DNA from: Paludibacter sp.
GTDB taxonomy: Bacteria; Bacteroidota; Bacteroidia; Bacteroidales; Paludibacteraceae
Direction of reading: 5' to 3'
Assembly (NCBI GenBank): GCA_013426815.1
Contig: JACDZH010000001.1
Coordinates: 14,934-78,933, forward strand
Length of the DNA stretch: 64,000 bases
Shown here: positions 2,045 to 60,840 of the stretch, piece by piece
How positions within the stretch are numbered: position 1 is the stretch's first letter
Layout: each line of letters begins with the position of its first letter
Program-made: the position numbers and the translations under genes
The notes under the pieces: model-generated
The model's database searches: none
What the model was told of the DNA's origin: nothing
What the model saw: only the letters and a program-made list of their open reading frames with translations

Positions 2045-2072
2045 TAATGAATAATGAATAATGAATAATGTA
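2045..2072. repeat. Heptamer tandem repeat (TAATGAA)x4, last copy degenerate
   Basis: Read directly after the paralogue 2 stop codon. Confidence 0.85.
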
Positions 2073-2081
2073 TAATTAAGA

Positions 2082-2099
2082 TCCCGATAGCTATTGGGA
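2082..2099. repeat. REP-like palindrome TCCCGATAGCTATTGGGA (one mismatch)
   Basis: Near-perfect 18-bp palindrome; a perfect copy lies at 5601-5618. Confidence 0.75.
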
Positions 2100-2197
2100 G
2101 AATTAAGAATTCTTATTCGTGTTAATTTGTTAAATTAGTGGTTCAATTATAATAAAAAATGACAGAAACAGAAATAACGTTTAAAAAATAAATAAAT

Positions 2198-3829
2198 ATG
2201 AAAAAAAACCATTCAAAACCCGTACACAGCTTGCAAAGTATCGTCTTTGTGTTGGCTGTATTCGTATGCTTTTTATTTAGCACAGGTGCTTACGCCAATA
2301 ACATTGTTGTATCAGGTACAACAGTTTACGGGCACAATACAACCTTTAAAACCACAATGGTGAAGTTTAACTTACAATGGGAAAACTCATTTAGGGTGGA
2401 TCGGGGTCCTGCCAACTGGGATGCCGCATGGGTATTTGTAAAATACCGTGTTCCTACTAACTATGGCGGTGATGGTGTTTGGCGACGTGCCTCAATAACT
2501 AATACAGACTTTGTAGCGCCGGCAGGTAGCACTGTGGCATTGGGTTTGCTTTCACCGGGTATTGCCTACAATGCTACTACAAATCCGGTAATTGGCGGGT
2601 TTGTTCATCGTAGTGTAAATGGAGTTGGTACTATTAACGCCACTGGTGTAGAGTTAAAATGGAACTACGGAAACGATATAAAAACCGGTAGCACACTGGT
2701 TGGTGATAATGATGTAGTAGATATACAGGTGTACGCCATCGAAATGGTGTATATACCCACCGCTAGTTTTTATTTAGGAAGCGGAGGTACCGAAAATAAT
2801 GCTTTTTACAAAGCCCCCAATACTTCCGATCCGTATTTGGTTACAAGTGAAGCACAAATTACTGTAAATGCGAGTTCACCAAATCTTTACTATCCAACAG
2901 GTACTTATGGCGGCGATCAGGCTGGTCCCATCGTGGCTGCATACCCCAAAGGATACAATGGATTTTATTGTATGAAGTACGAAGTGAGTCAGCAAGGATA
3001 TGTCGATTTTCTGAATAGTTTAGTACGTGTACAACAGGCTAACCATGTAGCTACTTCGGTAGGTGTTGGAGCTACATCTGTTACCAATCGTTATGTGATG
3101 TATAATTCTGCTTCGCTTGGTTTTAGAAATGGAATACGCTGCGATGCTGCTATCAATGCCAATGACCCCATTACTTTTTATTGCGACTTAAATGGCAATG
3201 GTACCGGCAGCGAAGCAGCAGATGGTAAAGATATTGCCTGCAATTATTTAAATTGGGCTGATTTAGCTGCGTATCTCGATTGGAGTGGCTTACGCCCTAT
3301 GACTGAGTTGGAATATGAAAAAGCTTGTAGAGGCACTAAGTTGCCGATACCCAACGAATATGCCTGGGGCACGGTAAATCTTACCCAGAACACAGGAATA
3401 AGCAATGCTGGGCTTACCAACGAAGTAAGTGCTAATGGCGGTAACGCAACTTATGCTAATAATGCCGGTGTGCAAGGACCTATGCGTGTAGGTGCTTTGG
3501 CATTAAATCCTTCGTCGCGCGAGCGTTCGGGTGCCAGCTTTTATGGCATTATGGAATTAAGTGGTAATCTGTGGGAACGCGCAGTAACTATAGGTAATAC
3601 CGCCGGCAGGGGTTTTACAGGCACACATGGCGATTGTGTATTGGATGGAAACGGCTATGCAAATGCAGCTACTTGGCCCGTCATTGCAGGAGCGGGAGTC
3701 GGCATTCGCGGTGGAGATTGGTTTAATCTTGCTACTTATATGACGGTTTCTGATGCTTATTTTAGATCCTATACATATAGTCTCCGATACCAAAATTTTG
3801 GTGGTCGTGGTGTTCGGTTGGCTCCTTGA
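2198..3829 (+). CDS. FGE/SUMF1-fold secreted protein, paralogue 3 (543 aa)
   Basis: Same architecture: GAYA/NNI, NWDAAWVFVKY, MKYEVSQ, LRPMTELEYEKACRG, ELSGNLWER, RGGDW...VSD...GGRGVRLAP. Confidence 0.88.
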   Translation: MKKNHSKPVHSLQSIVFVLAVFVCFLFSTGAYANNIVVSGTTVYGHNTTFKTTMVKFNLQWENSFRVDRGPANWDAAWVFVKYRVPTNYGGDGVWRRASITNTDFVAPAGSTVALGLLSPGIAYNATTNPVIGGFVHRSVNGVGTINATGVELKWNYGNDIKTGSTLVGDNDVVDIQVYAIEMVYIPTASFYLGSGGTENNAFYKAPNTSDPYLVTSEAQITVNASSPNLYYPTGTYGGDQAGPIVAAYPKGYNGFYCMKYEVSQQGYVDFLNSLVRVQQANHVATSVGVGATSVTNRYVMYNSASLGFRNGIRCDAAINANDPITFYCDLNGNGTGSEAADGKDIACNYLNWADLAAYLDWSGLRPMTELEYEKACRGTKLPIPNEYAWGTVNLTQNTGISNAGLTNEVSANGGNATYANNAGVQGPMRVGALALNPSSRERSGASFYGIMELSGNLWERAVTIGNTAGRGFTGTHGDCVLDGNGYANAATWPVIAGAGVGIRGGDWFNLATYMTVSDAYFRSYTYSLRYQNFGGRGVRLAP

Positions 3830-3832
3830 TAG

Positions 3833-3953
3833 TAGAATGTAGAATGTAGAATGTAGAATGTAGTTTTTATATTCTCAATTCTCAATTCAAAAATAATTCT
3901 CAATTCTCAATCAAAAATAATTCTCAATTCAAAAATAATTCTCAATTCAAAAA
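3833..3953. repeat. Spacer repeat block: (TAGAATG)x4 followed by four ~18-bp AATTCTCAATTCAAAAAT units
   Basis: Heptamers at 3833-3860; 18-mers at about 3877-3894, 3902-3918, 3919-3936 and 3937-3953. Confidence 0.85.
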
Positions 3954-4023
3954 GGGATTTACAATTCCAAAATAATTCGATTAAATAGAAAAAAATGATA
4001 AATAATTTTTAATAATAAAAAAT

Positions 4024-5586
4024 ATGAAAAGAAACCATTCAAAACCCGCATTCAGCTTGCAAAGTAAAACCTTTGCGCTAGCTGCTTTATTTTGTATTTT
4101 ATTTGGCACCGGCGCTTATGCAAATAATATTGCTATCGCCAACGTAACTCCCATTGGGCAATCTACATCAGGTGCTGCCAATACGCACTATACTATGGTG
4201 CAGTTCGACATTTCGTGGGCTAATTCATTTCGTGTAAGTACAGGTCCTTCTAACTGGGATGCTGCATGGATGTTTGTAAAATATCGAGTTTCGGTAGCCA
4301 ATGGCGGTGATGGACTTTGGAGACATGCCACCCTTAATACTTCTGGTTTCACAGCACCTACCGGTAGCTCCATTACTGCAGCTACCGATGGTACAGGCGC
4401 ATTTATCTATATGTCGGCTGATGGTCGTGCCGATTTTAATAAATTAGGCGTACAACTACGCTGGAACTACGGACTAAATACCAAAGATGGAGTTACAGGT
4501 ATTGGAGATAACGATTTAGTGGATATTCAGGTTTTTGCTATCGAAATGCTTTGGGTACCACAGGGAGCTTTTGCAATTGGTACCGGTGGAACCGAGACCA
4601 GCGCATTTACTCTTACCACCATTAATACCGGTTCTGCTACTTTGACCCCTGCAGGCGTTGGAACACTTGGTGGACAAGCAGGTGGATATCCAACAGGAGC
4701 AACATTACCTACTTCTTCAACTTTTTCTAATGGATTCAATGGATTTTATTGTATGAAGTACGAAGTAAGTCAAAAGGGGTATGTCGATTTTTTGAATACA
4801 TTAACCTATACCCAACAAGCAGGTCGTGTTAGCATTGCACCAAGTTCTTCTGTTGGTACTTATATTAATGGTATAGATAATAAACGAAACAAAATTAAAA
4901 TTGGAACTCCCGGAACAGCTTCTACAGTTCCTGCCGTTTTTACTGCCGAATTTACCGATGTAGCTTGTAACTGGCTAAGTTGGGGCGATTTAGCTGCTTA
5001 TCTCGATTGGAGTGGCTTACGCCCAATGACAGAATTGGAATACGAAAAAGCATGTCGTGGTACTTTAGCACCTGTTGCAAATGAATATATTTGGGGTGGA
5101 ACAACCATTGCTACAGCCGAATATACTATTTCTAGCGGTGGTAGTCCTAGTGAAGTTATCAATGATAATTATAGCACAACCTTGGGAAATGCCGCTTATG
5201 CAACCACTGATTTAGTAACAGGTATTAACGGTCCTGTTCGTGTTGGTATTTTTGCCGGAACTTCTGGAAACAATGGTAGAAGAACTGCAGGTGCAACCTA
5301 CAATGTAATTATGGAAATGGGTGGTAATGTGTCAGAACGTGTTGTGGCATTAGATGCAACAGGTAAAGCTTTTACAGGAGTACATGGCGATGGAAGGCTT
5401 GACGCTAATGGTGATGCAGTAGTTACCAACTGGCCTGATGTAATGACTGCCGCTGGTATTGGTTTCCGTGGCGGTAACTGGCAAAGTTCTGCTGATTTTT
5501 TACGTATTTCTGACCGTGCTGATATAGCAACAGTTGATGCAACTCGTACTGCTTTAACCGGTGGACGTGGTGTTAGAATACCGTAG
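4024..5586 (+). CDS. FGE/SUMF1-fold secreted protein, paralogue 4 (520 aa)
   Basis: GAYA/NNI, NWDAAWMFVKY, MKYEVSQ, LRPMTELEYEKACRG, EMGGNVSER, FRGGNW...ISDR...GGRGVRIP. Confidence 0.88.
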   Translation: MKRNHSKPAFSLQSKTFALAALFCILFGTGAYANNIAIANVTPIGQSTSGAANTHYTMVQFDISWANSFRVSTGPSNWDAAWMFVKYRVSVANGGDGLWRHATLNTSGFTAPTGSSITAATDGTGAFIYMSADGRADFNKLGVQLRWNYGLNTKDGVTGIGDNDLVDIQVFAIEMLWVPQGAFAIGTGGTETSAFTLTTINTGSATLTPAGVGTLGGQAGGYPTGATLPTSSTFSNGFNGFYCMKYEVSQKGYVDFLNTLTYTQQAGRVSIAPSSSVGTYINGIDNKRNKIKIGTPGTASTVPAVFTAEFTDVACNWLSWGDLAAYLDWSGLRPMTELEYEKACRGTLAPVANEYIWGGTTIATAEYTISSGGSPSEVINDNYSTTLGNAAYATTDLVTGINGPVRVGIFAGTSGNNGRRTAGATYNVIMEMGGNVSERVVALDATGKAFTGVHGDGRLDANGDAVVTNWPDVMTAAGIGFRGGNWQSSADFLRISDRADIATVDATRTALTGGRGVRIP

Positions 5587-44762: not shown

Positions 44763-46928
44763 CTATTTGGTTTTGGGATTACCTTTACCAGATGCATTAA
44801 TCAAAAACAAACCATCATGAGCCGGAATAGTAACTTCGGTAACAGTTTGTCCATTATTCGCTGAAGTATCAAGATTTCCTTGAATACGTTGGTAACTCTT
44901 TTCTAATTTAATTGTTTGAGGTGTAGCACTTGCATTGGCAAGAATAATTCCGTTTTCGAAATCGCGTCGAAACATATCGGCTGTTCCAGCAAACAAATAC
45001 AATTGATCCACACTGATTTTTGTTAATTCTCCACCAATTTCGAAGGTAATTTCAGGATTTCCACCCGATTTCTCTTTCCAGTTTAATACATGTTTACTCC
45101 AACCTGGTGTGGCAAATATCTTCTGTGAAAAGGAACCCAATTTAACTTTAATAATGCGTTCGGGATTTTTATTCTGAACACTGAAACACAAAGTGTACTC
45201 CTGATTTGCTTTTAACTCAACCGAAGGACCTGAAACCGAAGCTCCTTCTAAATGGAATTGATTGTTAGGTATTTGAGGTTCGATTAAAAGCGAATATTTG
45301 CCTTCGTATTTAATATCAGAAACCTGCTTTGCTGTAGCCTTTTCACTTTTCCACGAAGTACCAATTGATGCTTCAAAATTTCCATTAGGAATTAAATTTT
45401 TATCCGAAGTAAAATTAGCTCTATCGTATATGCGTTTATACTGACCTAAAGCTTTTCCCAACCATTTATTATTTGCTAGAATATCTTTAGTATTTGCTTT
45501 AAGTACTGATTTTCCGTAATTTTCACCTTGTTGGGTATAAACAGCATCTTCGTCGAAATAATGGAAGGCATCATCAAATCCATTTTGATTACTAAACCAT
45601 GCACCATCAAACATCATGGTCATAGCATACGAAAATCGAACAGGAGAATTACGTTTTTCACCAGATTTGCCCGGATAAATGGCACTTGCTTCTTTTCCCT
45701 GAACATCAGTAACCCTTGGTACGATAACACCATGTCCGGTTTGAGCTTTCATACCACTTATATAAAATCCTTTGTAATTATAATTTTGAGCTTTTACACC
45801 ATTTTCGCCAAATTGATGCGACCAAGCTGCTTCCATTTGTGTTCCATTGTTCGAAAGAACCCCATAAGATTCTGCAACACCACCCAATATAACAGCATTT
45901 GTCAAACCACGTTTATCAAGTCCTTTACGCACATTACTGTAAAACAATTCCAATCCTTTACCCCAATGATTATTACCCAGCTCGTCATAACCCCAATCGG
46001 GAGTTCCGTCATTATCAAGGTCAGCGTTTCTTGTTTTAATGCTACCTCCATCAATAAATGCAAATGGATCAGCATCGTAAAGTATACCATCTACATCGAT
46101 AGTTGATTGTTTCCCGAATTCATCTTTGTCGAAATTAACCGACAACCAATCAGAGAATGCCTCGTGCGCTCTTTTTCCGTTTTTATCTTTTGGAGCCTTA
46201 GTAGAATGGTTATAAACCCAGTTCAAATTTCCGGTGCCATTTCCGAGTTGATGTTGGGCAATGATTGAGCCCGATGGCCATGAACGTGCTTCGCTCTTAT
46301 ACCCTCGCATTGTAATGGTGATAATTGAACCTGCTTTTGTAATCTTTACATGTTCAGCATTTTCCCACGAATCTACAGGTCTGATTACACAATAGGATTC
46401 ACCGTCTAAAATATTAGCTTTGTTTTCCACATTTATTACTATATTTTCTTCGACACCAATTCCGTTAGTCAGTTTTGTATATGCCTTATAAGCCCAATGT
46501 CCTGCAAAAATCTGATTATTGGCAGTTGCCGGACCCGTGGTATTAAATGGATACCCGTTACCCTGCATATTAGGAGTATCGCTGGCACCCTGATAAGCTT
46601 GCGGACTAAATTCTCGCAGATAGCTGAGGTTGGGATTGAAAGCCCGCGCACTTTCCACTTTTTTGGCAACAAATAGTTTTGCACAAACAATATCGAAACA
46701 AGCCATTGCATCTGGTGAAAGGCTCGAGTTCTTTAAAGTGCCAATGCTGCGTCTTGGGTAAGTTTGATTAGCCGAGAGCTTATTTTTTTCGACCCTGGTA
46801 ACAGAATTTACAGGAGGCTGGTCTTCCAACCAATCTAATTTTTGAGCTGAAACAAAAATGATGGAAATAAATATTCCAATAATAAGTAAAATAAATGATT
46901 TTAGATTTTGATAATGCATTGATTTCAT
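44763..46928 (-). CDS. Uncharacterised putative glycoside hydrolase with a CBM4/9-like domain, paralogue A (721 aa, no T9SS tail)
   Basis: Family motifs shared with 50837, 58675 and 60856: LDWLEDQP, DGILYD, ADLDNDG..DWGY, GTQMEAAW, FHYFDEDAVY, NGNFE, FRRDFENG. Confidence 0.7.
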   Translation of the reverse strand: MKSMHYQNLKSFILLIIGIFISIIFVSAQKLDWLEDQPPVNSVTRVEKNKLSANQTYPRRSIGTLKNSSLSPDAMACFDIVCAKLFVAKKVESARAFNPNLSYLREFSPQAYQGASDTPNMQGNGYPFNTTGPATANNQIFAGHWAYKAYTKLTNGIGVEENIVINVENKANILDGESYCVIRPVDSWENAEHVKITKAGSIITITMRGYKSEARSWPSGSIIAQHQLGNGTGNLNWVYNHSTKAPKDKNGKRAHEAFSDWLSVNFDKDEFGKQSTIDVDGILYDADPFAFIDGGSIKTRNADLDNDGTPDWGYDELGNNHWGKGLELFYSNVRKGLDKRGLTNAVILGGVAESYGVLSNNGTQMEAAWSHQFGENGVKAQNYNYKGFYISGMKAQTGHGVIVPRVTDVQGKEASAIYPGKSGEKRNSPVRFSYAMTMMFDGAWFSNQNGFDDAFHYFDEDAVYTQQGENYGKSVLKANTKDILANNKWLGKALGQYKRIYDRANFTSDKNLIPNGNFEASIGTSWKSEKATAKQVSDIKYEGKYSLLIEPQIPNNQFHLEGASVSGPSVELKANQEYTLCFSVQNKNPERIIKVKLGSFSQKIFATPGWSKHVLNWKEKSGGNPEITFEIGGELTKISVDQLYLFAGTADMFRRDFENGIILANASATPQTIKLEKSYQRIQGNLDTSANNGQTVTEVTIPAHDGLFLINASGKGNPKTK

Positions 46929-48478: not shown

Positions 48479-48697
48479 ATGGCACGAATAGCAGGCATTA
48501 CAATAGAAAAGGACGAACGCGGCAACGCACGATTTGCCCGTATTGATTTGCGTAAACATGGCGAATTATTTAATCCAATTTTAAAGGGAGTTGGAGTTGA
48601 TGTAAATAACATAAAACTTACATCCAAACTGAAACGTAGTATTGATGAAGCTAAATCAGGTAATTATACTCGTGGTAATTTAGAAAATTTTTGGTAA
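48479..48697 (+). CDS. Putative antitoxin (72 aa; not obviously Phd/YefM at the N-terminus)
   Basis: Small ORF upstream of the toxin with a TAATG overlap; C-terminal LKRSIDEAKSG resembles YefM-type toxin-binding helices. Confidence 0.65.
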   Translation: MARIAGITIEKDERGNARFARIDLRKHGELFNPILKGVGVDVNNIKLTSKLKRSIDEAKSGNYTRGNLENFW

Positions 48698-48996
48698 TGG
48701 AATATTTCGAAACGCGCACAGCATTAAAGGATAAACAAAAAATTAAATCAATGGACGGTTCTACTAAAAAACGATTAAAGGATATAGTAGAAAGTATCAT
48801 TGAAAGTCAGCTTGATTTAGATGCTATTGGAAAGCCTGAACAATTAAAGTATTCCGATATTGATTTATGGTCAAGAGAATTAACAAAAAAAGATCGTATT
48901 GTTTATGCTATTGAACCTGGATATTTATATGATATGAGCAATGAAGCTGAAATAATAGTATTTTATCAATATTTAGGACATTATACCGACAAATAA
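48697..48996 (+). CDS. yoeB: Txe/YoeB family mRNA interferase toxin
   Basis: IGKPEQLKY...WSRELTKKDRIVY matches the YoeB GKPEPLK..WSRRI..HRLVY pattern; ATG at 48697. Confidence 0.8.
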   Translation: MEYFETRTALKDKQKIKSMDGSTKKRLKDIVESIIESQLDLDAIGKPEQLKYSDIDLWSRELTKKDRIVYAIEPGYLYDMSNEAEIIVFYQYLGHYTDK

Positions 48997-49119
48997 CCAC
49001 CCACTCGCCATAGTAAAAAAAAATCTCGAACTACACACTGAACCCATGGCTCAACCTACTTTTAATATTTATTACATTCAAATATGCAAGCTAGGAGACT
49101 TGCTACCTACCTGACGAAG

Positions 49120-49203
49120 TCAAAGAGTATTCGCCCAACGGTTCATTTCCGTCAAACCTTCACCTCCATCGGTTAGCGAAATATTAAAAATCTGTATCTG
49201 CAT
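49120..49203 (-). pseudogene. 5' stub of an HRDC-type DGR accessory-like gene
   Basis: MQIQIFNISLTDGGEGLTEMNR then divergence and a stop; resembles the MQIKxFxIP..D.GE..EE(L/M)NRFL N-terminus of DGR-linked HRDC proteins (recognised from memory); same strand, about 240 nt downstream of the FGE gene. Confidence 0.45.
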
Positions 49204-49253
49204 TTTTCTGAAAAATAAAAATCGACCGCTTCGCGGTTAAATAATAATTCTTT

Positions 49254-49288
49254 AAGTGATAGCCTCACTTTTAGTGAGACTATCACTT
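49254..49288. repeat. REP-like palindrome AAGTGATAGCCTCACTTTTAGTGAGACTATCACTT
   Basis: 15-bp arms with one mismatch; same GTGATAG...CTATCAC family as 12799-12856. Confidence 0.75.
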
Positions 49289-49445
49289 ATATTAAAAACC
49301 CCTTGCGCTTGCTTCGGTCGTCTCTCTCAGCTTCGCTCGAGAACCGCCTCCCTCGCAGGCGAATGGTTTTTCCTTTTCCCCTCTCCTCAAGGAGATGGGT
49401 GAGGGGTGAGGTTTTTTTCTTTTTTTTAGCTCAAAGCCCTGTGAA

Positions 49446-50408
49446 CTATGGGACGAACACCACCCGGAACCCTAAAGTGAAGCCGTTGCTGATCGGGGTG
49501 TTGTCAGTGCGAATAGCTCAGCGGCAATACCGAGCGTATTCGTTCCAACTGCCACCACGAATCACGCGGTACGAGCCCGTTGTAGCACCTGTAGGGTTGT
49601 TCTGAGCAGTGGTAGGATAAGTGCCGTAACAGTCGGCGCACCATTCCCACACATTCCCGTGCATATCGTAAAGACCGTAGGCATTGGCAGGATTAGTACC
49701 TACCGTTTGGGTTTTGCTTAATGGTGTAGTAATTGTATTGGTACAAGTGCAGTAAGGTGACGACCACCTATAATTGGCTTGCAAATTCGTTAAGCAGTTA
49801 CCGGTACTAAAGGGCGTGGTAGTACCTGCTCGGCAGGCATATTCCCATTGGGCTTCGTTAGGCAAAGTACCACCTACGTTAGTAGCAAACTCAGTTGCGC
49901 CATACCAAGTTACTCTATTCACCGGAGCATTTTCGTAACCTACTACTGGTACCCATTGGCTGCCACTGTAATGTAAACCAAAGTCGTAAGTATCACTTCT
50001 GGCATAAATCAAAACCTGCGTTGGATATGCACCTGCTGCATACTTACCATCGCTACCAATACTTTTGGCATTCAAAAAGGCGGCATACTGCGCATTCGTT
50101 ATCTCGTACTTACTCATACGGAAGCTACTAAGAGTAACGGCAAACTGAGTTTCGTTGGTTTCTCGGTTTACTTCGGTTACAGGGCTGCCCATTATAAACA
50201 TGCCACCCATAATATGCGCAGTCTGAATATCGGCACCCGGAGTAGCTATTACCGGTTTGTAAAAGATAATGCTGTCCACACCGGTTTTCTTAATTGATTG
50301 TTTGTTGATTATCACACCACCTTTCATTACATACATGGTGTCGGTTTGCGCTTGAAGCAGGGCTGCGGGAAAAATGAAAGCTGCTAATGTTAGAAATATT
50401 TTTTTCAT
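49446..50408 (-). pseudogene. Secreted FGE/SUMF1-domain protein with a DGR variable-region-like C-terminus and an in-frame TGA at 49518-49520
   Basis: Signal peptide; GGMFIMGSP, KYEITNAQY, LPNEAQWEYACRAG, YDMHGNVWEWC, RVIRGGSW; the frame continues past TGA as AIRTDNTPISNGFTLGFRVVFVP*. Confidence 0.8.
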
Positions 50409-50434
50409 GATTGTATAATATTTTATGGTTGCAC

Positions 50435-50462
50435 GTAAAGGCGGGGCGCGCCCCGTCTCTAC
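50435..50462. repeat. GTAG-type REP palindrome (minus strand GTAGAGACGGGGCGCGCCCCGCCTTTAC)
   Basis: GC-rich 28-bp imperfect palindrome directly upstream of the FGE gene. Confidence 0.75.
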
Positions 50463-50836
50463 ATTGTGCCATTGTTAATTTTTTAAAGAATTTGATGGTT
50501 TGTATTTCTGTTCCGTTATTTATGCGGCAAAGATTAATGCCTTGCCCAAATTGTGATACGAGTATCTGGTGCTTGTTTACATCCGTAAAATGTGCATGGT
50601 AAAGCATTTTGCCATCAATCGAAAATAAAAGGATATCAGGGCTACGCCCCTCAATATCATTTTTACATTCTTTGTTCTACAAAGATATCGCAGCTATGCT
50701 GCTTAATAACTCTGACAATGGGTGTTAGCCCTAATATCATTGTCAATTTGTGAACCATTTTCAACAAACAAATTTGCGTTGGCAAAATAATAAAAATATT
50801 TATATTACTCAACACACTAAGGCGAGCATGGGGACA

Positions 50837-53245
50837 TTATTTTTTAATAATTTTCTTCTGATAGTTTATATGATTACCTGATAATTTCAAAATATAAGCA
50901 CCTGACTGTTTGTCTGACAGATCTACTGTAATGTTTTTCTGATTTGATAAATTAAATTGATAAATTGCTTTACCCATCAAATCAAATATTTTTAATTCAT
51001 TAACACCTTCAGGAATGTTCAACGAAAGCATATCAGTAATCGGGTTTGGCGAAACTGAAATTTGAAATTCTTTCGTTTTTTCAATATCCGTAGCAGCTGT
51101 TTTAATTAAAAAAAGTCCATCATGTGCCGGAATAGTAACTTCGGTAACAACCTGCCCATTATTTACTGTTGCATCCAAATTCCCCAAAATACGTTGATAA
51201 GGTTTCTCTAATATAAATGTTTTTGGAGAAAAACTTGCATTGGCCAAAATAATTCCATTATCGAAATCGCGACGAAATAGATCGGCAGAACCAGCAAACA
51301 GGCCAAGTTGGTCAATCCATACTTTGGTAAGTTCAGATCCAACTTCAAATTTGACTTTCAAGCTACCTCCACTTAATTCCTTCCAACCCAAAACATGTTT
51401 GCTCCAACCCGGGGAAAGAAATATTTTTGAAGTAAGTGAACCCATCGACACTCGAATAATTCGGCTAGGACCTTCGCTATAAGCTGCAAAACACAAAGTA
51501 TATTCCTGATTCGATGCAATTGAAACAGAAGGTGTTGATATAGCTGAACCGGATATTTGCAAATTTGCATTAGGTATAGTTGGGGTAATTAGTAACGATG
51601 CAGTTCCTTCGAATTGTTTATCGGTAACTCTTGAAACGAAAGCTGCAGTTTGAGTCCATCCACTCACTGCCGTTTCAAAATTTCCATTCGAAATTAAATT
51701 CCTATCAGAAGCATAAGTGTTAGCATCATAAATTCGTTGGTATTGACCTTTTGCATTTCCTAGCCATTTGTTGTTTTTACAAATGTCTGAAGTATTAGTA
51801 ACTAAAGCTGATTTTCCATAATTAACTCCTTGTGTATAAACTGCATCTTCATCGAAATAATGAAAACCACCGCCAAATCCATTTTGATTCGAAAACCAGG
51901 CTCCATCAAACATCATAGTCATGGAATATGAAAATCGAACTGCATTATTGTTCGCAGGAACTGCTGTACCATGATAAATCAGACTAGCTTCTTTGCTTTG
52001 TAAATCGGTAACACGGGGTCCAATAATTCCATGACCTGTTTGAGCTTTCATACCACTGATATAAAATGGGAAAAAACTGTATATATTATTAGCTCCTACA
52101 ACAGCCCCATCTTCATCAAAAGTATGTGTCCAGGCTGCTTCCATTTGAGTACCATTGTTTGACAATATGCCATACGATTCGGCAACACCACCCAAAATAA
52201 CCACATTGATATGTCCTCTGGCATCAATTCCATCTCTTACTCCTTTGTAAAATAATTCCAGCCCTTCACCCCAAAAATTGTTTCCTTCTTTATCATAACC
52301 CCAATCGGATGCTCCATCGTTGTCCAAATCTGCATCACGACTATCAATACCACCACCATCAACATACGAAATTGGGTCGGCATCGTAGAGTATTCCACCA
52401 ATCTGAGCAGCATCAGGATTTCCATTACCATCTTTATCATAATGGGCAGCCAACCAAATTGAAAGAGCTTCGTGCATTTTCTTTCCATTAGCATCCAGAG
52501 GACATTTTGTGGAATGATTGTAAACCCATAATTCTTTTGCAGTTCCGTTTCCGGTTGTATGCTGTGCAATAACAGAACCAGCAGGCCATGCCTTTGCAGT
52601 GCTTTTATATCCACGGGTAGTGAGAGTTAATGTCGAACCAATTCTGGTAATATATAGATGTTCGGCATCTGTCCAATCGTAAGCCGATGGACGAATAACA
52701 TAATAGTAAGCACCACTTTGAATTTTTGAAATATCACTTACTGTCAATGTAATTCCAGACTCAGCAGTTATTGTAGCATTTAGAGTTGTATAAGGCTGGT
52801 AAGCCCAATGTCCGGCAAAAACTGAAATACCTGTTGTAGCAGTCCCAGATGTAGTAAAAGGTAATCCGCTCACTTCACTACCAGCTGCATCTGCAAAACC
52901 CTGATAAGCCTGCGGACTACATTCCCTTATCCAAGTCAAGTTAGGATTCAAACGCTGAGCATCCAGTATCGAGGTCTGATTATATGGTTTCTTGCAAACA
53001 AGATCAAAACAAGCTAATTGCTCTGCTGTTATTGATGCAGATTTAAGCGTACCAGTACTTCTGCGCGGAAAACCTGTAAGATTAGTAAACTTATTTGTTT
53101 GAACACGAGTAACCCTGTTGGTAGGTGGTTGATCTTCGAGCCAATCCAGTTTTTGAGCTGTAACTGTTACATTCAAAAACATAAAAAAAGCAAGTACAAA
53201 TAAGGCAATGCGATTGATTACTGATTCAGGGTAAAGTACTTTCAT
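50837..53245 (-). CDS. Uncharacterised putative glycoside hydrolase with a CBM4/9-like domain, paralogue B (802 aa, T9SS tail)
   Basis: Family motifs as for 44763; CTD ISVSPNPITD...IFDLMGK...GAYILK...KKIIKK. Confidence 0.7.
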   Translation of the reverse strand: MKVLYPESVINRIALFVLAFFMFLNVTVTAQKLDWLEDQPPTNRVTRVQTNKFTNLTGFPRRSTGTLKSASITAEQLACFDLVCKKPYNQTSILDAQRLNPNLTWIRECSPQAYQGFADAAGSEVSGLPFTTSGTATTGISVFAGHWAYQPYTTLNATITAESGITLTVSDISKIQSGAYYYVIRPSAYDWTDAEHLYITRIGSTLTLTTRGYKSTAKAWPAGSVIAQHTTGNGTAKELWVYNHSTKCPLDANGKKMHEALSIWLAAHYDKDGNGNPDAAQIGGILYDADPISYVDGGGIDSRDADLDNDGASDWGYDKEGNNFWGEGLELFYKGVRDGIDARGHINVVILGGVAESYGILSNNGTQMEAAWTHTFDEDGAVVGANNIYSFFPFYISGMKAQTGHGIIGPRVTDLQSKEASLIYHGTAVPANNNAVRFSYSMTMMFDGAWFSNQNGFGGGFHYFDEDAVYTQGVNYGKSALVTNTSDICKNNKWLGNAKGQYQRIYDANTYASDRNLISNGNFETAVSGWTQTAAFVSRVTDKQFEGTASLLITPTIPNANLQISGSAISTPSVSIASNQEYTLCFAAYSEGPSRIIRVSMGSLTSKIFLSPGWSKHVLGWKELSGGSLKVKFEVGSELTKVWIDQLGLFAGSADLFRRDFDNGIILANASFSPKTFILEKPYQRILGNLDATVNNGQVVTEVTIPAHDGLFLIKTAATDIEKTKEFQISVSPNPITDMLSLNIPEGVNELKIFDLMGKAIYQFNLSNQKNITVDLSDKQSGAYILKLSGNHINYQKKIIKK

Positions 53246-53432: not shown

Positions 53433-56400
53433 ATGAAAAAAACGCAATCACGCCGTGAATTCCTACGTACAAGTGTCTTTGCTGCGTCACTCGTAATTCT
53501 TCCCGATGGAATTTCAAGGCTTTTAGGTAATAATCTGCAAAAAAGAATAACAGAAATATCCTTAGATTCAACTTCATGGTTTACATGTGGTGGAGAAACC
53601 ATATATCATCTTAAAGCTGGAAAAACCAGATCTGATATTCCCCGATCAATTTTTGCTGCTGCATTTTCTGGGAAAATTCTATGTTACGATTTTTCAGGCA
53701 ATAAATTGTGGGAGCAAAAATGCAGTTCTTTTTTTCCTTTTTCAATGGATGTGGCTGATATTGATGGCGATGGCTTCGACGAATGTGTTATTGCTTCGGC
53801 TGATGGTTCCTTGTATATTATTGATAATGATGGCAGTTTAATTGCCAAATTATTTAGTGGAAAAACGCCACTTTATGCAGTTAAGGTAGTGAGTGATTCA
53901 TTGGGTAATCAAGCTATTTATTGTGGTGGTCCTGAGCGAATTTTATATAAAGTGTCGCCAAGAGGAGTTGTTTTAAACCAAATAACTACAACTTATGCCA
54001 TAACAACTATTAATTCCGGTATTTTTACACTTACTTCGGGAAAAGGATTGGTGGTGGGTTTACAGGCTAATTATGCGAAAAACTATCTCATTTTCTACAA
54101 TTTATCAACTTTTACAATCGTAGGAAATCCAATCAATACCAGAGAAACTTACCAATATACTGTGGCGGTTTCAGATATGGACTCAGATAATTCTGACAGA
54201 ATTGCTTTTGGTGGAAATAAAGAAGGGTCTGTATTTGATGCTTCTGGTACAAAATTACTTACACTTGAAGAAAAAACAACCGGAAGAGGACAAGATACTT
54301 ATGCACTCCAAATGCTGGAATCAATTCCGGCTGCTTCTGGTACAGGAAGGCAATTGATTGGACTGACAGCCAATTCTCTGAGATTTTACGATGCAGCCGG
54401 TCAAATTCAAAAAGATGTTTCGTTCGACATTGCTCCTGCCGGATTATTTTATGACGATGTTACTGAAACACTTCTGTTGGGTAGCGATATTTCAGGTGGA
54501 GATACTATTTACTGTGTAAGACTAAAAGAGACAGGCTGGGAAAACGCCCTAAAATCTATTGGTTATAAAGGAAAACTAGCAACAATAGTTGCAAACATAA
54601 ATACACTTAATGAGCAAGTGAATAATTTTACAGCTCCTGTTTATCAACCAGTTGAAAACACTGAACAAACCTATGTTTTCACATACAATCCTTATAATCC
54701 GGGTACCTTAAACGAAATTGATATAAATTATTCACTTAAACCGATATTGAATGTTTATAGTAACGAATTCAAATACTCCCATATTCATTTTTCCGGAAAT
54801 CAGTGGCTAAGCGAAAGCAGTGAAAGCTTCAATAGGTCGGCTCTACCTTATGGCTGGGATACCAAACGGGATACACGTATGCCATATAAATTAACTTCAA
54901 CGCAAATTATTGATTATGCAAGAACGTTAGAGCAAAATGGATTATCCTTTACATGGACAATAGGGCATGGCAATGATCCGTTTTTCTTAAGTCTTACAAC
55001 TGTAGAGGGTATTTTGATCGCAGCTCCCACCAAATGCGATGGTTTTATTTTTCCTGAAATGGAAGCAGGAGATACTCCGGCTTTCCACTATGCTATTGAA
55101 AATCACATTATTCCAATCTGTAATCTGTGTGTGAAATATGGAAACAGAAAAGTAATTTTACGTTCAAAATTTCTATTTTGGGCCGCAGATATATACACCG
55201 ATTTGTGGAGTTGGGCATTGAAAGATAAAAAATATAAAGACGTAATTGTTCCGGCAATGGAAGAAACCTACGAGCGATTATGCGACCTTTCAATTTCAGG
55301 ACGGGTTGGACTAAAACAAGGTGGATGGTTTAATGATTGGGCAGGTAGGGCTGTTCACGACAATCCTTTGTACGACAGACAACATCAATGGTCAGCAACT
55401 ACAATTGGTAGCCACTTTTTAAGGGCAATGGTTTATCAATCCGAAATGGGAGCACGAATTAATCTGATACAACTTTCGGAAGTAACACCTACCGGTTTTC
55501 GTGGTCATTCCCTTATTGTTAAGCCTTTTACACACATGCTCGGAAAGGGAATTCTCCGTTGTCCGCAAAACACTTCAGATATGTTATCATTATCTCCAGT
55601 AGTTATTGGAATGAAACCTGCATCGGAAACATTTATTGAGGCTTCTCATAATTCTCATAAAATAGCTATTTATGCAGATGATCCCAAATGGGTATTCAGC
55701 AGGCTCGAATGTTTTTGGGGTCAAGCTGCAACTCCGGAACATGATTTTGGTTATTTTGGTACCGGTAGAAGAAAGCAGGCAATGAACTTTATACCAAAAA
55801 ATCCGTATGGAATGGTAACTTTTCACCCCAACGATGGATCTGCATTGACACAAACCGGTGTGGAAAAAGTAATTGTTACCGATGGAGAAAGTTGGTACGA
55901 CGAAAATGGTGCGAAACAAAGTGCAATAGCCTATGCTTCTGCAATCGAAAACACATTGAAATCGTATGCCGAAGAAATGATGATAAAAGTAGTTGGTGAT
56001 GTTGCGTGGACTGCTACACAACTCGATTTAAACCATTTACGTATTGTGATTATTGATTCGGGCTATTTAGATCCTGACAATCGAGAAGCACAAATAACAA
56101 TTGCTGTTGATGTAATTTCGGCAACCGATATCCTTACTAAACAGGCTATAGCTGTCAACAACAACAGCTTTCGGGTAACAGTTCCTATGGGTATTCTTAG
56201 TATTATCGACATCGAATATAATCAACAAACATCTGTGAAAAAACCCTCAAAAGTGCAAAATATCAAAATTTATCCAAACCCTATTTCCGATTCAATAAAT
56301 ATAAAATTGAGTAATGAAAATGTGGATTGGGATGTTGAAGTTTTTGATATGTTGGGGAAACTCTTAATCAAAGAGCAAAATAAAATCAAAGTTTATACCC

Positions 56401-56480
56401 ATTCACTCGAAAAAGGAATGTACATGGTCAATGTACAATCTGGAGGAGATGTTTTATCTCAAATGATTATAAAAATATAA
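53433..56480 (+). CDS. cglA: Lambda-carrageenase family protein (CglA/GH150-like) with a Tat motif and a T9SS tail
   Basis: FG-GAP-like DIDGDGFDE..IASADG; GHGNDP, IFPEME, VPAMEET, DNPLYDR, LSLSPV, VFSRL, NFIPK, DSGYLDP are collinear with Pseudoalteromonas CglA as recalled; N-terminal SRREFLR; CTD IYPNP...VFDMLGK...KGMYMV. The symbol is family-level. Confidence 0.8.
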   Translation: MKKTQSRREFLRTSVFAASLVILPDGISRLLGNNLQKRITEISLDSTSWFTCGGETIYHLKAGKTRSDIPRSIFAAAFSGKILCYDFSGNKLWEQKCSSFFPFSMDVADIDGDGFDECVIASADGSLYIIDNDGSLIAKLFSGKTPLYAVKVVSDSLGNQAIYCGGPERILYKVSPRGVVLNQITTTYAITTINSGIFTLTSGKGLVVGLQANYAKNYLIFYNLSTFTIVGNPINTRETYQYTVAVSDMDSDNSDRIAFGGNKEGSVFDASGTKLLTLEEKTTGRGQDTYALQMLESIPAASGTGRQLIGLTANSLRFYDAAGQIQKDVSFDIAPAGLFYDDVTETLLLGSDISGGDTIYCVRLKETGWENALKSIGYKGKLATIVANINTLNEQVNNFTAPVYQPVENTEQTYVFTYNPYNPGTLNEIDINYSLKPILNVYSNEFKYSHIHFSGNQWLSESSESFNRSALPYGWDTKRDTRMPYKLTSTQIIDYARTLEQNGLSFTWTIGHGNDPFFLSLTTVEGILIAAPTKCDGFIFPEMEAGDTPAFHYAIENHIIPICNLCVKYGNRKVILRSKFLFWAADIYTDLWSWALKDKKYKDVIVPAMEETYERLCDLSISGRVGLKQGGWFNDWAGRAVHDNPLYDRQHQWSATTIGSHFLRAMVYQSEMGARINLIQLSEVTPTGFRGHSLIVKPFTHMLGKGILRCPQNTSDMLSLSPVVIGMKPASETFIEASHNSHKIAIYADDPKWVFSRLECFWGQAATPEHDFGYFGTGRRKQAMNFIPKNPYGMVTFHPNDGSALTQTGVEKVIVTDGESWYDENGAKQSAIAYASAIENTLKSYAEEMMIKVVGDVAWTATQLDLNHLRIVIIDSGYLDPDNREAQITIAVDVISATDILTKQAIAVNNNSFRVTVPMGILSIIDIEYNQQTSVKKPSKVQNIKIYPNPISDSINIKLSNENVDWDVEVFDMLGKLLIKEQNKIKVYTHSLEKGMYMVNVQSGGDVLSQMIIKI

Positions 56481-56553: not shown

Positions 56554-57859
56554 TACTGCTGTTGCGTTAATACTTAACATTCAAATAATTTTAGTTGCTC
56601 TTTGACATTTTGATATAATTGATGTTGTTCGCATTATAACTCACGTATTGGTGTTTTGTCTCGTACAGAAATACCAAGTATTTGCATTATTTCATAAACA
56701 TTATAATTGCTTTTGAGTTCATACTTGATGTGTGCTACTATTAAGTATGTGCAAATAGCTATCCAAAGGTATTTTTTTACTGCATTTACAGAGTATCCCC
56801 ACAGCTTTTTAATAATAAGGTTTTTGTTTTATCCATTTGAAAAATACTTCGATTTGCCAACGATTTTTATACAAGTTGGCAATTTCTAAAGCTGATACTT
56901 CAAAATTATTTGTCAGAAAAACAAGTAATTCATCGTTTTGATTGTCGTAATACTCAACCAAACGTAGTTTTTCGGGATAAAGCACTTTTGATTTTTGTAT
57001 TCTTAACATCACTGTTTTATCTGTTCTCAACCCTGTAGTTTGGTACATATTGAAATTTTGTTCAACAACTTCATAATTCATCGGTTTTTTAGCTCTTTTT
57101 GCAAAAAATGCATCTACTTGATTTATACGGTATAATGATTCAAAGTCAACATATTCTTTATCCATTAAATAAATAGCATTTCTTTGAGGAACAATTTCGT
57201 CCATAGCATTACTGTCGTGATATTTCCGGGTCAGTTATAAGTATAAATTCGGGTATACTGCCCCTTAAGTTGAGCAAAGTGTGCATTTTCACAGCTCCAC
57301 GCGAATACTTACATTCTGCCCAAGTGCAAAGATTGATTCTGACCGAAATAGTGTTGAGTCCAACGCATATACTTCATTGTCAATATCAAGATTGGAAATG
57401 GAGCAAATTGCATACAATGGACGAACCTTCGAAATTAGATAATAACCGAAATCGGCTAATTTCCGCCAGTCTCAGTTTTCACTGGCTCTTGACAGGGTAG
57501 AAACTACGACATATTGTTTAATACCCAAGTGATATTGCTTGCCTTTGTGAGCCATTAAGCACAAAAATTGTTGTGCAGTGAATTCGGCGAGATCAATTGT
57601 CCGAAGAATAGTTGAACAAACTGATTCCAACAATTCAAATCACGTACACGATAATTACCAAAGTATCGTTTTACGTACTTATTAAATTCATACAGATCCA
57701 CGAAATCCAAAACCTGTGAGAATACATATTTACCCTAATACATAATTTGCTTTTCGAGCAAATGTACGTCAATTCAAGTCAAAAAATCAAAGAACGAGTC
57801 TATATGACTGTATTACAACAAGATACACGCAAATGTTAAAAGTTAACTCAAAACTACTA
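56554..57859 (-). mobile_element. Degenerate IS4-family insertion sequence (DUF4372 + DDE transposase pseudogene)
   Basis: Relic start at 57743 reads MY*GKYVFSQ; YHLG, STLSRA, YALDST, KMHTLL, YKNRWQIEVFFKWIKQ occur across stops and frameshifts; imperfect 17-bp terminal inverted repeats (12/17) at 56554-56570 and 57843-57859. Confidence 0.85.
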
Positions 57860-58674: not shown

Positions 58675-60840
58675 TTATTTTGGTTTTACTAAAAACAACC
58701 CTTCGTGTGGAGCCAAAGTAATTTCACTTACATTTTTTTCACCATTATTTACTACAGCATCCAGATTACCGGCAATGCGGCTCAATCCTTTTTCTAACTG
58801 AATAGTTTTGGGTAAGTTGCTCGCATTGGCAAGTATAACTCCGTTTTCGAAATCACGACGAAATACGTCAGCAGACCCTTCGAACAAATACAATTGATCT
58901 ACCCAAACATTTGTTAATTCACCTCCTACATCAAATCTTAAACTGGAATTTTCTGAGTTTTTTTCTTTCCATGTCAGTACTTGTTTGTTCCAACCGGGCG
59001 TAACAAATAGTTCCTGCGTAAAGGAACCTATTTTAACATCCACTTTGCGCGCCGGTCCTTCACTGTAAACAGCAAAACACAAGGTATATTCTTTATCAGC
59101 AATTAGTGAAATTGACGGACTGCTTACTGTTGCTGCACTCCAATCACTTACTATATTATTCGTTTTATCGGGCGTAATTTTCAAACACGCTTTTCCCTGA
59201 TATGGTTTGTTTTGCTCAATTGATGCTGCTGCTTTTATACCAGTCCATTCGGTTAATGGCTTTTCAAAATCTCCGTTAGGAAAAAGATTTTTCGACACAT
59301 CGAAAGCATAAGCATCGTAAACTCGTTTATAACCTCCAAGTGCCTTACCAAGCCATTTGCTGTTTTTGAGAATATCAGAAGTGTTGGATTTCAAAACCGA
59401 TTTACCAAAATTTTCTCCTTTTGCGGTGTAAACAGCATCTTCGTCGAAATAATGAAACGGATCACCAAAACCATTTTGATTGCTAAACCAAACACCGTCG
59501 AACATCATGGTCATAGCATACGAGAAACGCACATGCTTATTGGTAGTTTCTACTGTCTTACCATAATATAAGGCACTGATTTCTTTTCCCTGAACATCGG
59601 AAACCCTAGGATAAATCAGTCCATGTGCAGTTTGAGCTTTCATTGTACTCATGTAAAAACCTATATAATTATAAGCTGATGCTGGTGCTCCCGTTGCAAT
59701 AAATTGATGCGACCAAGCTGCTTCAACCTGTGTGCCATTATTTGGTAGTAATCCCCACGACTCTGCAACACCTCCTACAATAATTACATCTTTTCGACCT
59801 ATGGAATTTAATCCATCGCGTACACCTTTGTAAAACGTTTCCAAACCCTCGCTCCAAAAATTTGTACCATCTTGTGCATATCCCCAGTCGGCTACTCCGT
59901 CGTTATCCATATCAGCATTACGTCTTTTACGTCCACCACCATCAATAAATGCATACGCATCTGAGTCGTAAAGAATACCATCAACCATTGCTTTACATTG
60001 ATTTCCTTGCTCATCTTTATCGTAATTTTTCACAAGCCATTCTGCAAAAATATCGCAAGCGCGTTTTCCTTTTGCATCCTTTGGGCAGCGCGATGTCAAG
60101 TTGTAACACCAGTTTAAATTATCAGTTCCATTTCCTATTTGATGTTGTGCAATGATAGCACCTGCTTTCCAATCCTGTTTTTGACTTTTATAGCCACGCT
60201 TTACAACAGTAATTGTTGCTTCAGTGTCATTGACTTTCGAAACCTGCACGTGTTCAGCATTTTTCCACGAGTCAGCATTGCGGATAACGCAATATGAACC
60301 TTTTTGAATTGCCTGAGCGTTAGCCACTTTTAGTACCATAGTATCTTTTGTTCCCAAATCTTCGGACAAAGTAGTGTATGGTTTGTATGCAAAATGTCCA
60401 GCAAAAATCATATTATCTTCAGTGGCTTCAGCCGAAGTATTGAAAGGATGACCGTTTCCTTGTAAGTTTGGCTCATCCTGACCCCCTTGCCATTCCTGTG
60501 GACAATATATGCGCAACCAAGTCAGATTTGGGTTAAAAACCTGAGCCTCTAACACTTTTGTTCCACCACCAAAAGGCTTGGAACAATAAATATCATAGGT
60601 TGATAATTGCTCTGCTGTAATTGCATTGTTTTTTATTGATCCTGTGCTTTTACGGGGAAAAGCATCTTTGGTCGACAATTTATTTTTTTGTACATAAATT
60701 GCTTCTTTGGGAATTGGCTGATCGTTGAGCCAATCGTAGGAATTGCTTTTTGACACAGCCCAACAACTGTTTGTTATTGTATAAGCGCCTGTAAATATTA
60801 AAAATATCTTGAATATAGATATTTTTATCTGAATTTTCAT
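58675..60840 (-). CDS. Uncharacterised putative glycoside hydrolase with a CBM4/9-like domain, paralogue C (721 aa, no T9SS tail)
   Basis: YDWLNDQP, DGILYD, ADMDNDGVADWGY, GTQVEAAW, FHYFDEDAVY, FRRDFENG. Confidence 0.7.
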   Translation of the reverse strand: MKIQIKISIFKIFLIFTGAYTITNSCWAVSKSNSYDWLNDQPIPKEAIYVQKNKLSTKDAFPRKSTGSIKNNAITAEQLSTYDIYCSKPFGGGTKVLEAQVFNPNLTWLRIYCPQEWQGGQDEPNLQGNGHPFNTSAEATEDNMIFAGHFAYKPYTTLSEDLGTKDTMVLKVANAQAIQKGSYCVIRNADSWKNAEHVQVSKVNDTEATITVVKRGYKSQKQDWKAGAIIAQHQIGNGTDNLNWCYNLTSRCPKDAKGKRACDIFAEWLVKNYDKDEQGNQCKAMVDGILYDSDAYAFIDGGGRKRRNADMDNDGVADWGYAQDGTNFWSEGLETFYKGVRDGLNSIGRKDVIIVGGVAESWGLLPNNGTQVEAAWSHQFIATGAPASAYNYIGFYMSTMKAQTAHGLIYPRVSDVQGKEISALYYGKTVETTNKHVRFSYAMTMMFDGVWFSNQNGFGDPFHYFDEDAVYTAKGENFGKSVLKSNTSDILKNSKWLGKALGGYKRVYDAYAFDVSKNLFPNGDFEKPLTEWTGIKAAASIEQNKPYQGKACLKITPDKTNNIVSDWSAATVSSPSISLIADKEYTLCFAVYSEGPARKVDVKIGSFTQELFVTPGWNKQVLTWKEKNSENSSLRFDVGGELTNVWVDQLYLFEGSADVFRRDFENGVILANASNLPKTIQLEKGLSRIAGNLDAVVNNGEKNVSEITLAPHEGLFLVKPK

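Follow-up and report, generated by a model that had tools for sequence, protein, structure and literature searches.

The described system closest to the locus reported here is the TvpA diversity-generating retroelement (DGR) of Treponema denticola, an HRDC-type element of 'Architecture C' (Wu et al. 2018, PMC5758913). It has a target of the FGE fold with a C-terminal variable repeat (VR), as our locus does; its HRDC accessory gene overlaps the gene of the reverse transcriptase (RT), and it acts on remote targets (PMC5758913, PMC4891356). Seven remote targets are known in T. denticola (PMC5758913). The DGR of Bordetella phage BPP-1 (mtd-avd-TR-brt) is likewise comparable in its 3' VR on a C-type-lectin-fold target, its A-to-N mismatches between VR and template repeat (TR), the conserved GC-rich VR end common to the TR, and a stem-loop past the VR; it differs in being phage-borne and in having Avd rather than HRDC as accessory. 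Here we analyzed a 64-kb stretch of DNA from Paludibacter sp. (contig JACDZH010000001.1, positions 14,934 to 78,933; the whole stretch is called the window, and positions are those of the window unless another locus is named). The locus around 49120-50408, all of whose cassette features lie on the minus strand, is with good confidence a decayed (fossil) HRDC-type DGR cassette in an uncultured Bacteroidota genome of a pond metagenome.

Compared with the Treponema element, the locus has a Bacteroidota host and a small gene with a type IX secretion system (T9SS) tail ahead of the target, and the window copy is without RT, TR and HRDC domain. The gene order also differs, being TR-HRDC-RT in Treponema and target-HRDC-RT-TR in the intact relatives of the window locus. 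The order target-HRDC-TR-RT assumed in the original prediction, which had been made from the DNA alone and read the locus as a fossil DGR cassette, was therefore not that of this lineage. Because Nimkulrat et al. (2016, PMC4891356) regarded as remnants those target genes that persist in T. denticola isolates lacking RT and TR, DGR remnants are an already known kind, to which the window locus adds another member.

Target gene, variable repeat and accessory stub

The features that carry the assignment are the following.

49518..50408, minus strand: truncated DGR-target open reading frame (ORF), 296 amino acids (aa), with signal peptide and FGE-sulfatase (C-type-lectin-like) fold
49518..49520, minus strand: in-frame TGA in place of the Ser of CRSAxR; this codon is TCT, TCC or TCA in relatives and in their TRs
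49446..49517, minus strand: final 23 ancestral codons (AIRTDNTPISNGFTLGFRVVFVP) and TAG (49448-49446), no longer translated
49473..49577, minus strand: variable part of the VR, aligning without gaps with the TRs of loci L101, L092, L093, L094 and L096
49446..49472, minus strand: invariant VR 3' end (GGGTTCCGGGTGGTGTTCGTCCCATAG), resembling an initiation-of-mutagenic-homing (IMH) sequence; 27/27 identical to the L101 TR end
49427..49448, minus strand: VR 3'-flank element TAGTTCACAGGGCTTTGAGCTA, 22 nt counted from the stop codon, with the 7-bp stem TAGTTCA/TGAGCTA
49137..49322, minus strand: intergenic region and accessory start, 93% identical to L101 113-299 and L087 2823-3009 (187 nt)
49135..49203, minus strand: codons 1-23 of an HRDC-type DGR accessory gene (MQIQIFNISLTDGGEGLTEMNRW), then 4 unrelated codons and a stop codon at 49122-49120
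49136..49137, no strand: breakpoint, where homology with every related cassette ends

Read through the TGA, the target gene comprises 320 codons (50408..49446), with an ATG at 50408 and a signal-peptide-like N-terminus. The read-through product matched the Pfam FGE-sulfatase family PF03781 with 167.5 bits (cut-off 23.3; E = 5.9e-49), covering positions 7-254 of the profile's 255; thus, the TGA truncates the FGE domain. A database search returned thousands of target homologues, the best 120 of which were mostly 316-320 aa long and spanned 100% of the read-through. In an alignment of 40 homologues (~73% identical overall), the residue at the TGA site was Ser in at least 90%, confirming the placement of the internal stop at the Ser of CRSAxR. 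A premature stop in a conserved domain, in a reading frame that aligns at full length with intact homologues, marks the gene as a pseudogene. The target shares fold and Pfam family with the FGE/SUMF1 enzymes (PF03781); in DGR targets of the family the fold serves as a variable ligand-binding scaffold, and a catalytic role is not expected. TvpA is without FGE activity (PMC5758913).

At the Ser codon the TRs of relatives read TCT, TCA or TCC, and the L096 TR reads ACT. To convert TCT, TCC or TCA to TGA requires one or two changes, all of which fall on non-adenine template positions; the TGA is therefore not a product of adenine mutagenesis and arose either through ordinary substitution or as a non-canonical DGR error of the kind in Wu et al. 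(PMC5758913). Recoding of TGA was considered and rejected: TGA serves this genome as a normal though rare stop codon, closing 2 of 26 long ORFs, and long ORFs are unbroken under translation table 11.

The C-terminus of the relatives reads GSxRVxRGGxWxxxAQxCRSAxRxxxxPxxxxxxIGFRVV, where x is hypervariable even between otherwise near-identical proteins. Hypervariability was limited to these VR positions in the 40-protein alignment, and in the DNA of relatives the variable codons are NNC/NNT, set between invariant blocks. When the window VR (49577..49439) was aligned with the TR of L101, which belongs to another organism, 22 of 139 positions differed, without gaps: 18 differences fell on the 42 TR adenines and 4 on the 97 other positions (Fisher p = 6e-8). 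Within 49473..49577 the mismatches at TR adenines lie mostly in AAC/AAT codons. The stop codon accounts for two of the four non-adenine differences (TCT to TGA) and a change of AAC to GAA for a third; the fourth is the T/C right after the stop, by which, in every cassette, the flanks of VRs can be told from those of TRs. An FGE target with a VR-like end, as originally proposed, was thus borne out. The adenine bias against the L101 TR shows past rather than present membership in a DGR.

Since homing overwrites the 3' end of the VR, this 27-nt segment can be regarded as a cast of the lost TR. Its complete identity to the L101 TR end implies that the lost TR must have been L101-like; a TR of this type would have, for example, the core GGCAGTTGGAACAACAACGCTCAGAATTGCCGC followed by the flank TAGCTCAAAGCC. 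The window contains no adenine-mismatch partner of the VR: with the VR as query, blastn over all 64 kb found the VR itself only.

The stub ORF starts with the ATG at 49203 and encodes MQIQIFNISLTDGGEGLTEMNRW followed by ANTL. It has the conserved accessory N-terminus MQIxxFxIPxxDxGxxxxEMNRFL... and shares 19 of 23 residues (83%; tblastn E = 3e-9) with the accessory protein of L087 and L101 (MQIQLFNISITDGGEGLAEMNRF), which follows the closest target homologue, P0004 (loci L087/L088). The first 35 residues of the L087 copy are the start of the 170-aa accessory of L101. More distantly, 13 of 23 residues are identical to the 153-aa accessory of the Cytophagia DGR L013 (MQIKIFTIPVGDSGAVLDEMNRF; tblastn E = 0.007 at window scale). 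The full-length proteins of L101, L094 and L013 match Pfam HRDC (PF00570) at residues ~77-149 (E = 1.6e-11 to 4e-14), and the next gene in the intact relatives is RVT_1 by Pfam. The HRDC domain occupies the C-terminal half of the protein and is absent from the stub, of which codons 1-23 are left. The reading of the stub as the start of an HRDC accessory gene was upheld. Two findings had been named that would speak against it, a stub unlike HRDC proteins and homologues that never lie beside a TR and an RT. Neither holds: the stub is homologous to the accessory N-terminus, and complete cassettes exist (L092, L093, L094/L095, L099 and L088+L101).

In terms of L101, at least 1.6 kb are missing past the breakpoint (accessory codons 24-170, RT and TR). 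From 49136 to the convergent YoeB-like toxin gene (48691-48996) there was no match to any cassette. A tblastn search with a cassette RT gave no match in the 64-kb window, no RT or HRDC remnants were found past the breakpoint, and RVT_1 was not detected in the neighbouring genes of the window or in the flanks of 2.9 and 5.1 kb by which Logan contigs extended it (DNA inspected in total, ~72 kb). Because cassette homology ends at 49137 with no RT or TR remnant in the window, the proposed deletion of TR and RT fits. In this inspected DNA there is neither a DGR-clade RT nor a TR/VR pair of the locus's own; the FGE-fold target with its 3' VR (in a TGA-interrupted ORF), the IMH-like VR end and the flank element are present. 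The locus is most likely non-functional. A toxin-antitoxin-like pair (48479-48996, plus strand) is oriented convergently to the stub and begins ~140 nt past the breakpoint; it consists of a 72-aa ORF and, overlapping with it, the 101-aa YoeB-like toxin (Pfam E = 3e-11). The pair may have come with the rearrangement.

Intact cassettes were retrieved by a scan of JGI and other metagenomes with an accessory-gene alignment. The targets of L092, L093, L094/L095 and L101 (which continues contig L088) are 68-77% identical to that of the window at the protein level; L099 is a more distant intact cassette (target ~41% identical). Within same-contig VR/TR pairs of relatives, 11-22 of 12-26 mismatches lie at TR adenines. 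The VR flank and the accessory N-terminus are common to the window and L088+L101, L094/L095, L092 and L093; in the intergenic region the window matches L101 and, in part, L093. Unlike the window, the intact cassettes retain a 165-170-aa HRDC accessory, an RT (RVT_1), a TR and uninterrupted targets. A scan of a genome collection with the target alignment gave, among the matches listed, mostly distant FGE targets and the reference DGRs L013 and L017. As regards phage origin, IMG/VR yielded no relative of the accessory.

Beyond the observed homologies, A-biased VR/TR mismatches, breakpoints and stop codon, we infer the order of decay events and the absence of any trans-acting DGR still serving the window VR. 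The ancestral cassette would have consisted of, in this order, the small T9SS-tail gene, a secreted FGE-fold target with C-terminal VR, the HRDC accessory gene, RT and TR. Its TR RNA would have been reverse transcribed with errors at adenines, and the resulting cDNA would have replaced the VR. The remaining accessory gene, RT and TR would have been lost through deletion or rearrangement at 49136/49137. The upstream T9SS-tail gene is shortened by a 551-nt deletion, and the TGA at the conserved VR Ser cuts the target 24 codons early, within the FGE fold. Of this cassette the window has kept the target, whose VR is frozen in a single variant, the recognition element in the 3' flank of the VR, the intergenic stretch and accessory codons 1-23. 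The locus would exemplify how a DGR cassette dies: accessory gene, RT and TR are deleted, after which the frozen target drifts. Annotation should treat the 296-aa 'FGE family protein' as a DGR-target pseudogene and the 27-aa ORF as a gene stub. The original prediction was supported overall, with four corrections, which concern the gene order, the identity of the hairpin past the VR, the non-adenine nature of the nonsense change, and the truncation upstream.

A frozen repeat or a remote target

Several points weigh against a cassette that is dead in all its parts. The DNA inspected covers ~72 kb of the genome, leaving room for a cognate DGR elsewhere, and DGRs are able to act on remote targets (PMC5758913). 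The TR with which the VR was compared comes from another organism. Scaffold and 27-nt IMH-like end of the VR, like the stem in its flank, are still intact, and non-adenine changes inside the VR number three, no more than in some active pairs; freezing of the VR may therefore be recent or incomplete. Moreover, Logan contigs lose rare variants, so that low-level heterogeneity of the VR would escape. No TR- or RT-bearing contig was found in run SRR11932628 with the VR and L101 as queries, but this result is uninformative, as the positive control failed: the 246-nt query L101:100-345 missed the window's own 16-kb contig despite 93% identity over 187 nt. Cross-locus negatives on Logan contigs are thus not trustworthy.

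These points bear on the alternative that survives best, in which the adjacent cassette is dead but an L101-like DGR at another site of the genome still acts on the VR as a remote target, the TGA being a transient allele to be overwritten by the next homing event. Because remote targets are documented for HRDC-type DGRs, including the seven in T. denticola, and many close target homologues lie far from any RT (without RT, TR or accessory nearby), such a trans-acting DGR could still exist, and the window has kept the flank stem as well as the 27 nt at the VR end that are identical to the TR. However, the VR is spanned by one uniform contig at ~150x, the target gene is broken and the neighbouring T9SS-tail gene truncated, and ~72 kb contain no RT or TR. 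In addition, the analogous fossil L174-176 has VRs that are identical in contigs of three samples. We therefore consider a live remote target unlikely and favour a frozen remnant.

It is far less probable that the TGA is an assembly or sequencing error in an intact target gene. In favour of this reading, the rest of the ORF can be aligned throughout to homologues without a frameshift. However, a Logan contig of SRR11932628 (16,350 nt, depth ~150) is identical to window positions 48900-50500, the TGA included, and two adjacent bases differ if the TCT of the relatives was the starting codon. This contig probably derives from the reads that also gave the window. Finally, that an ordinary FGE-family gene resembles a DGR target by chance and is followed by a meaningless short ORF would agree with the lack of RT and TR in the window, but we count it as refuted by the A-biased mismatches to the TRs of relatives (p = 6e-8), by the stub and 187 nt with 93% identity to a genuine HRDC accessory gene at its start, and by the conserved VR flank element.

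Complementarity between VR and TR flanks

The flank element that begins at the VR stop codon is conserved after the VRs of the relatives (TAGTTCAC..TTTGAGCTA). In intact HRDC-type cassettes (L092-L171), the ~25-35 nt past the VR stop match, as reverse complement, the sequence that immediately follows the TR. For L094, the VR flank reads TAGTTCACTGTTGAAGGCTTTGAGCTA and the TR flank TAGCTCAAAGCC[TCCGATGGATTTCGGA]AACAGTGAAC. The energy of the flank-flank duplex was more than 3 standard deviations below that of dinucleotide shuffles in 27 of 48 non-redundant VR/TR pairs (-37 to -56 kcal/mol), compared to 2 of 48 in a same-sense control. No flank complementarity was found in Avd-type cassettes. RNAalifold, applied to VR flank, linker and TR flank of 17 loci, predicted 19 pairs, 13 of them with compensatory double changes. 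Most targets of multi-target cassettes (L129, L171) retain the flank element, and the window flank (TAGTTCACAGGGCTTTGAGCTA) could still pair over 12 + 6 bp with an L101-type TR flank. Thus, the post-VR element of the HRDC class is complementary to the post-TR sequence, whereas that of BPP-1 is only a self-contained GC hairpin.

We found no account of this complementarity in the searchable open literature. According to a 2026 study, cDNA integration in DGRs is not yet fully understood, the favoured view being that the cDNA anneals to target DNA that is transiently single-stranded (PMC12875486). Because target finding and entry of the cDNA are still incompletely understood (PMC12875486), flank complementarity offers a testable handle for the HRDC class. 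In a possible docking model, the 3' flank of the TR RNA, still joined to the nascent cDNA, would pair with the single-stranded sense-strand VR flank, and this pairing would set the 5' end of the cDNA beside the 3' end of the VR. We put forward only tentatively, and with more doubt than belief, that the HRDC class recognises its targets by base-pairing of TR flank and VR flank. If so, any matching DGR in the cell could still address relics such as the window locus, and the TGA might be a reversible off-state. The window remnant itself is of modest interest; the flank complementarity is the item most worth following.

Other structures past the VR were assessed as well:

49323..49411, minus strand: lineage-specific insertion of 89 nt, absent from L087 and L101, carrying a palindrome like the repetitive extragenic palindromic (REP) elements
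49378-49411, minus strand: the REP-like palindrome (CCTCACCCCTCACCCATCTCCTTGAGGAGAGGGG), containing a TCTCC-TTGA-GGAGA hairpin
49253-49289, minus strand: hairpin with 17-nt arms in the conserved intergenic block
49225-49237, minus strand: small terminator-like hairpin in the same block, just ahead of the accessory start

The TCTCC-TTGA-GGAGA hairpin had been noted in the original prediction. It is present ~50 nt past the TAG (arms 49378-49387 and 49390-49399), but was rejected as a cassette element, as it sits in the 89-nt insertion that L087 and L101 lack. A copy of the palindrome lies upstream of the L002 gene, where it is translated in the N-terminal extension of P0002, and in SRR11932628 the palindrome has raised depth and a fold-back joint; we therefore regard it as a REP-like repeat. 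The conserved post-VR element is instead the 22 nt from the stop codon (49427-49448). The conserved structures left in the window are its 7-bp stem, the hairpin with 17-nt arms and the terminator-like hairpin. A search of Rfam gave no window match at gathering thresholds and one chance-level match in 48900-50900.

Recurrent decay and surroundings of the locus

Cassettes in various states of decay were found among the relatives. L087 retains ~37 accessory codons followed by unrelated DNA, and L089 retains 33 codons. In L090/91, a frameshift within a T-run is followed by truncation. L174-176 (L174 6876-9273) consists of a target, a 44-codon stub and a second target; the stub ends in a TGG to TAG nonsense change at codon 45, and a deletion extends into the TR flank. 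A segment of 2,548 nt, both VRs included, is identical in contigs from three samples, so that these VRs are frozen. L085 (7225-7310) and L086, with target P0032, have a TR-type flank (TAGCTCAAAGCCTCCGATGGATTTC...) directly after the target stop, the product to be expected if VR x TR recombination had deleted the accessory gene and RT. Thus, decay is recurrent in the HRDC-type family and took at least two routes, an internal deletion that leaves an accessory stub and VR x TR recombination. As a profile search gave nothing but short or partial proteins, probably through a bias of the word index, we make no claim about stub lengths, which seem to cluster at 33-37 codons.

The RT near P0032 in L085/86 was rejected as a cognate DGR RT: it lies on the opposite strand, has RVT_1 and GIIM domains and no TR, and was taken as group-II-intron-like. 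The contigs L087 and L101 come from two samples of the same study and agree at 99% identity as far as accessory codon ~37 (L087 3055, L101 343). Past this codon L101 runs on into the full cassette and L087 into unrelated genes, reflecting either a population deletion variant or an assembly chimera.

Upstream of the target, the window contains the following.

50479..50676, minus strand: 3' remnant (last ~59 aa) of a small gene with a T9SS C-terminal sorting domain, with a junction at 50624
50624..50828, minus strand: non-coding stretch of 206 nt upstream of the T9SS-tail gene, 94% identical to L087 800-1004

In relatives, the T9SS-tail gene lies upstream of the target and encodes a protein of ~170 aa; 551 nt of it are lost in the window relative to L087. 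The 206-nt stretch (50624-50828; L087/L088) is more conserved than the target gene (94% vs ~80%) and is possibly the promoter or leader of a T9SS-tail/target operon. A GC-rich palindrome (GGCGGGGCGCGCCCCGTC) lies at 50439-50464, between the T9SS-tail remnant and the target start. Its 25-mer GGCGGGGCGCGCCCCGTC recurs, inverted, in the 3'-terminal part of the L101 accessory gene (L101 688-712).

Elsewhere in the window, four tandem FGE-sulfatase-domain paralogues of 520-550 aa (window 392-5586; L172 1525-3177) have similar N-termini and end in ...GGRGVR(T/L/I)xP; they are without the AAC-type VR pattern and without DNA similarity to the studied VR. A DDE transposase fragment lies at 56809-57204. 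Large secreted paralogues are encoded at 44763-46928, 50837-53245, 58675-60840 and 53433-56480, with an N-terminal KLDWLEDQPP motif, some with T9SS tails, together with a lambda-carrageenase-like protein. The locus is flanked by the first two of these paralogues, of 721 and 802 aa. The DGR relic is located within this polysaccharide-degradation gene cluster.

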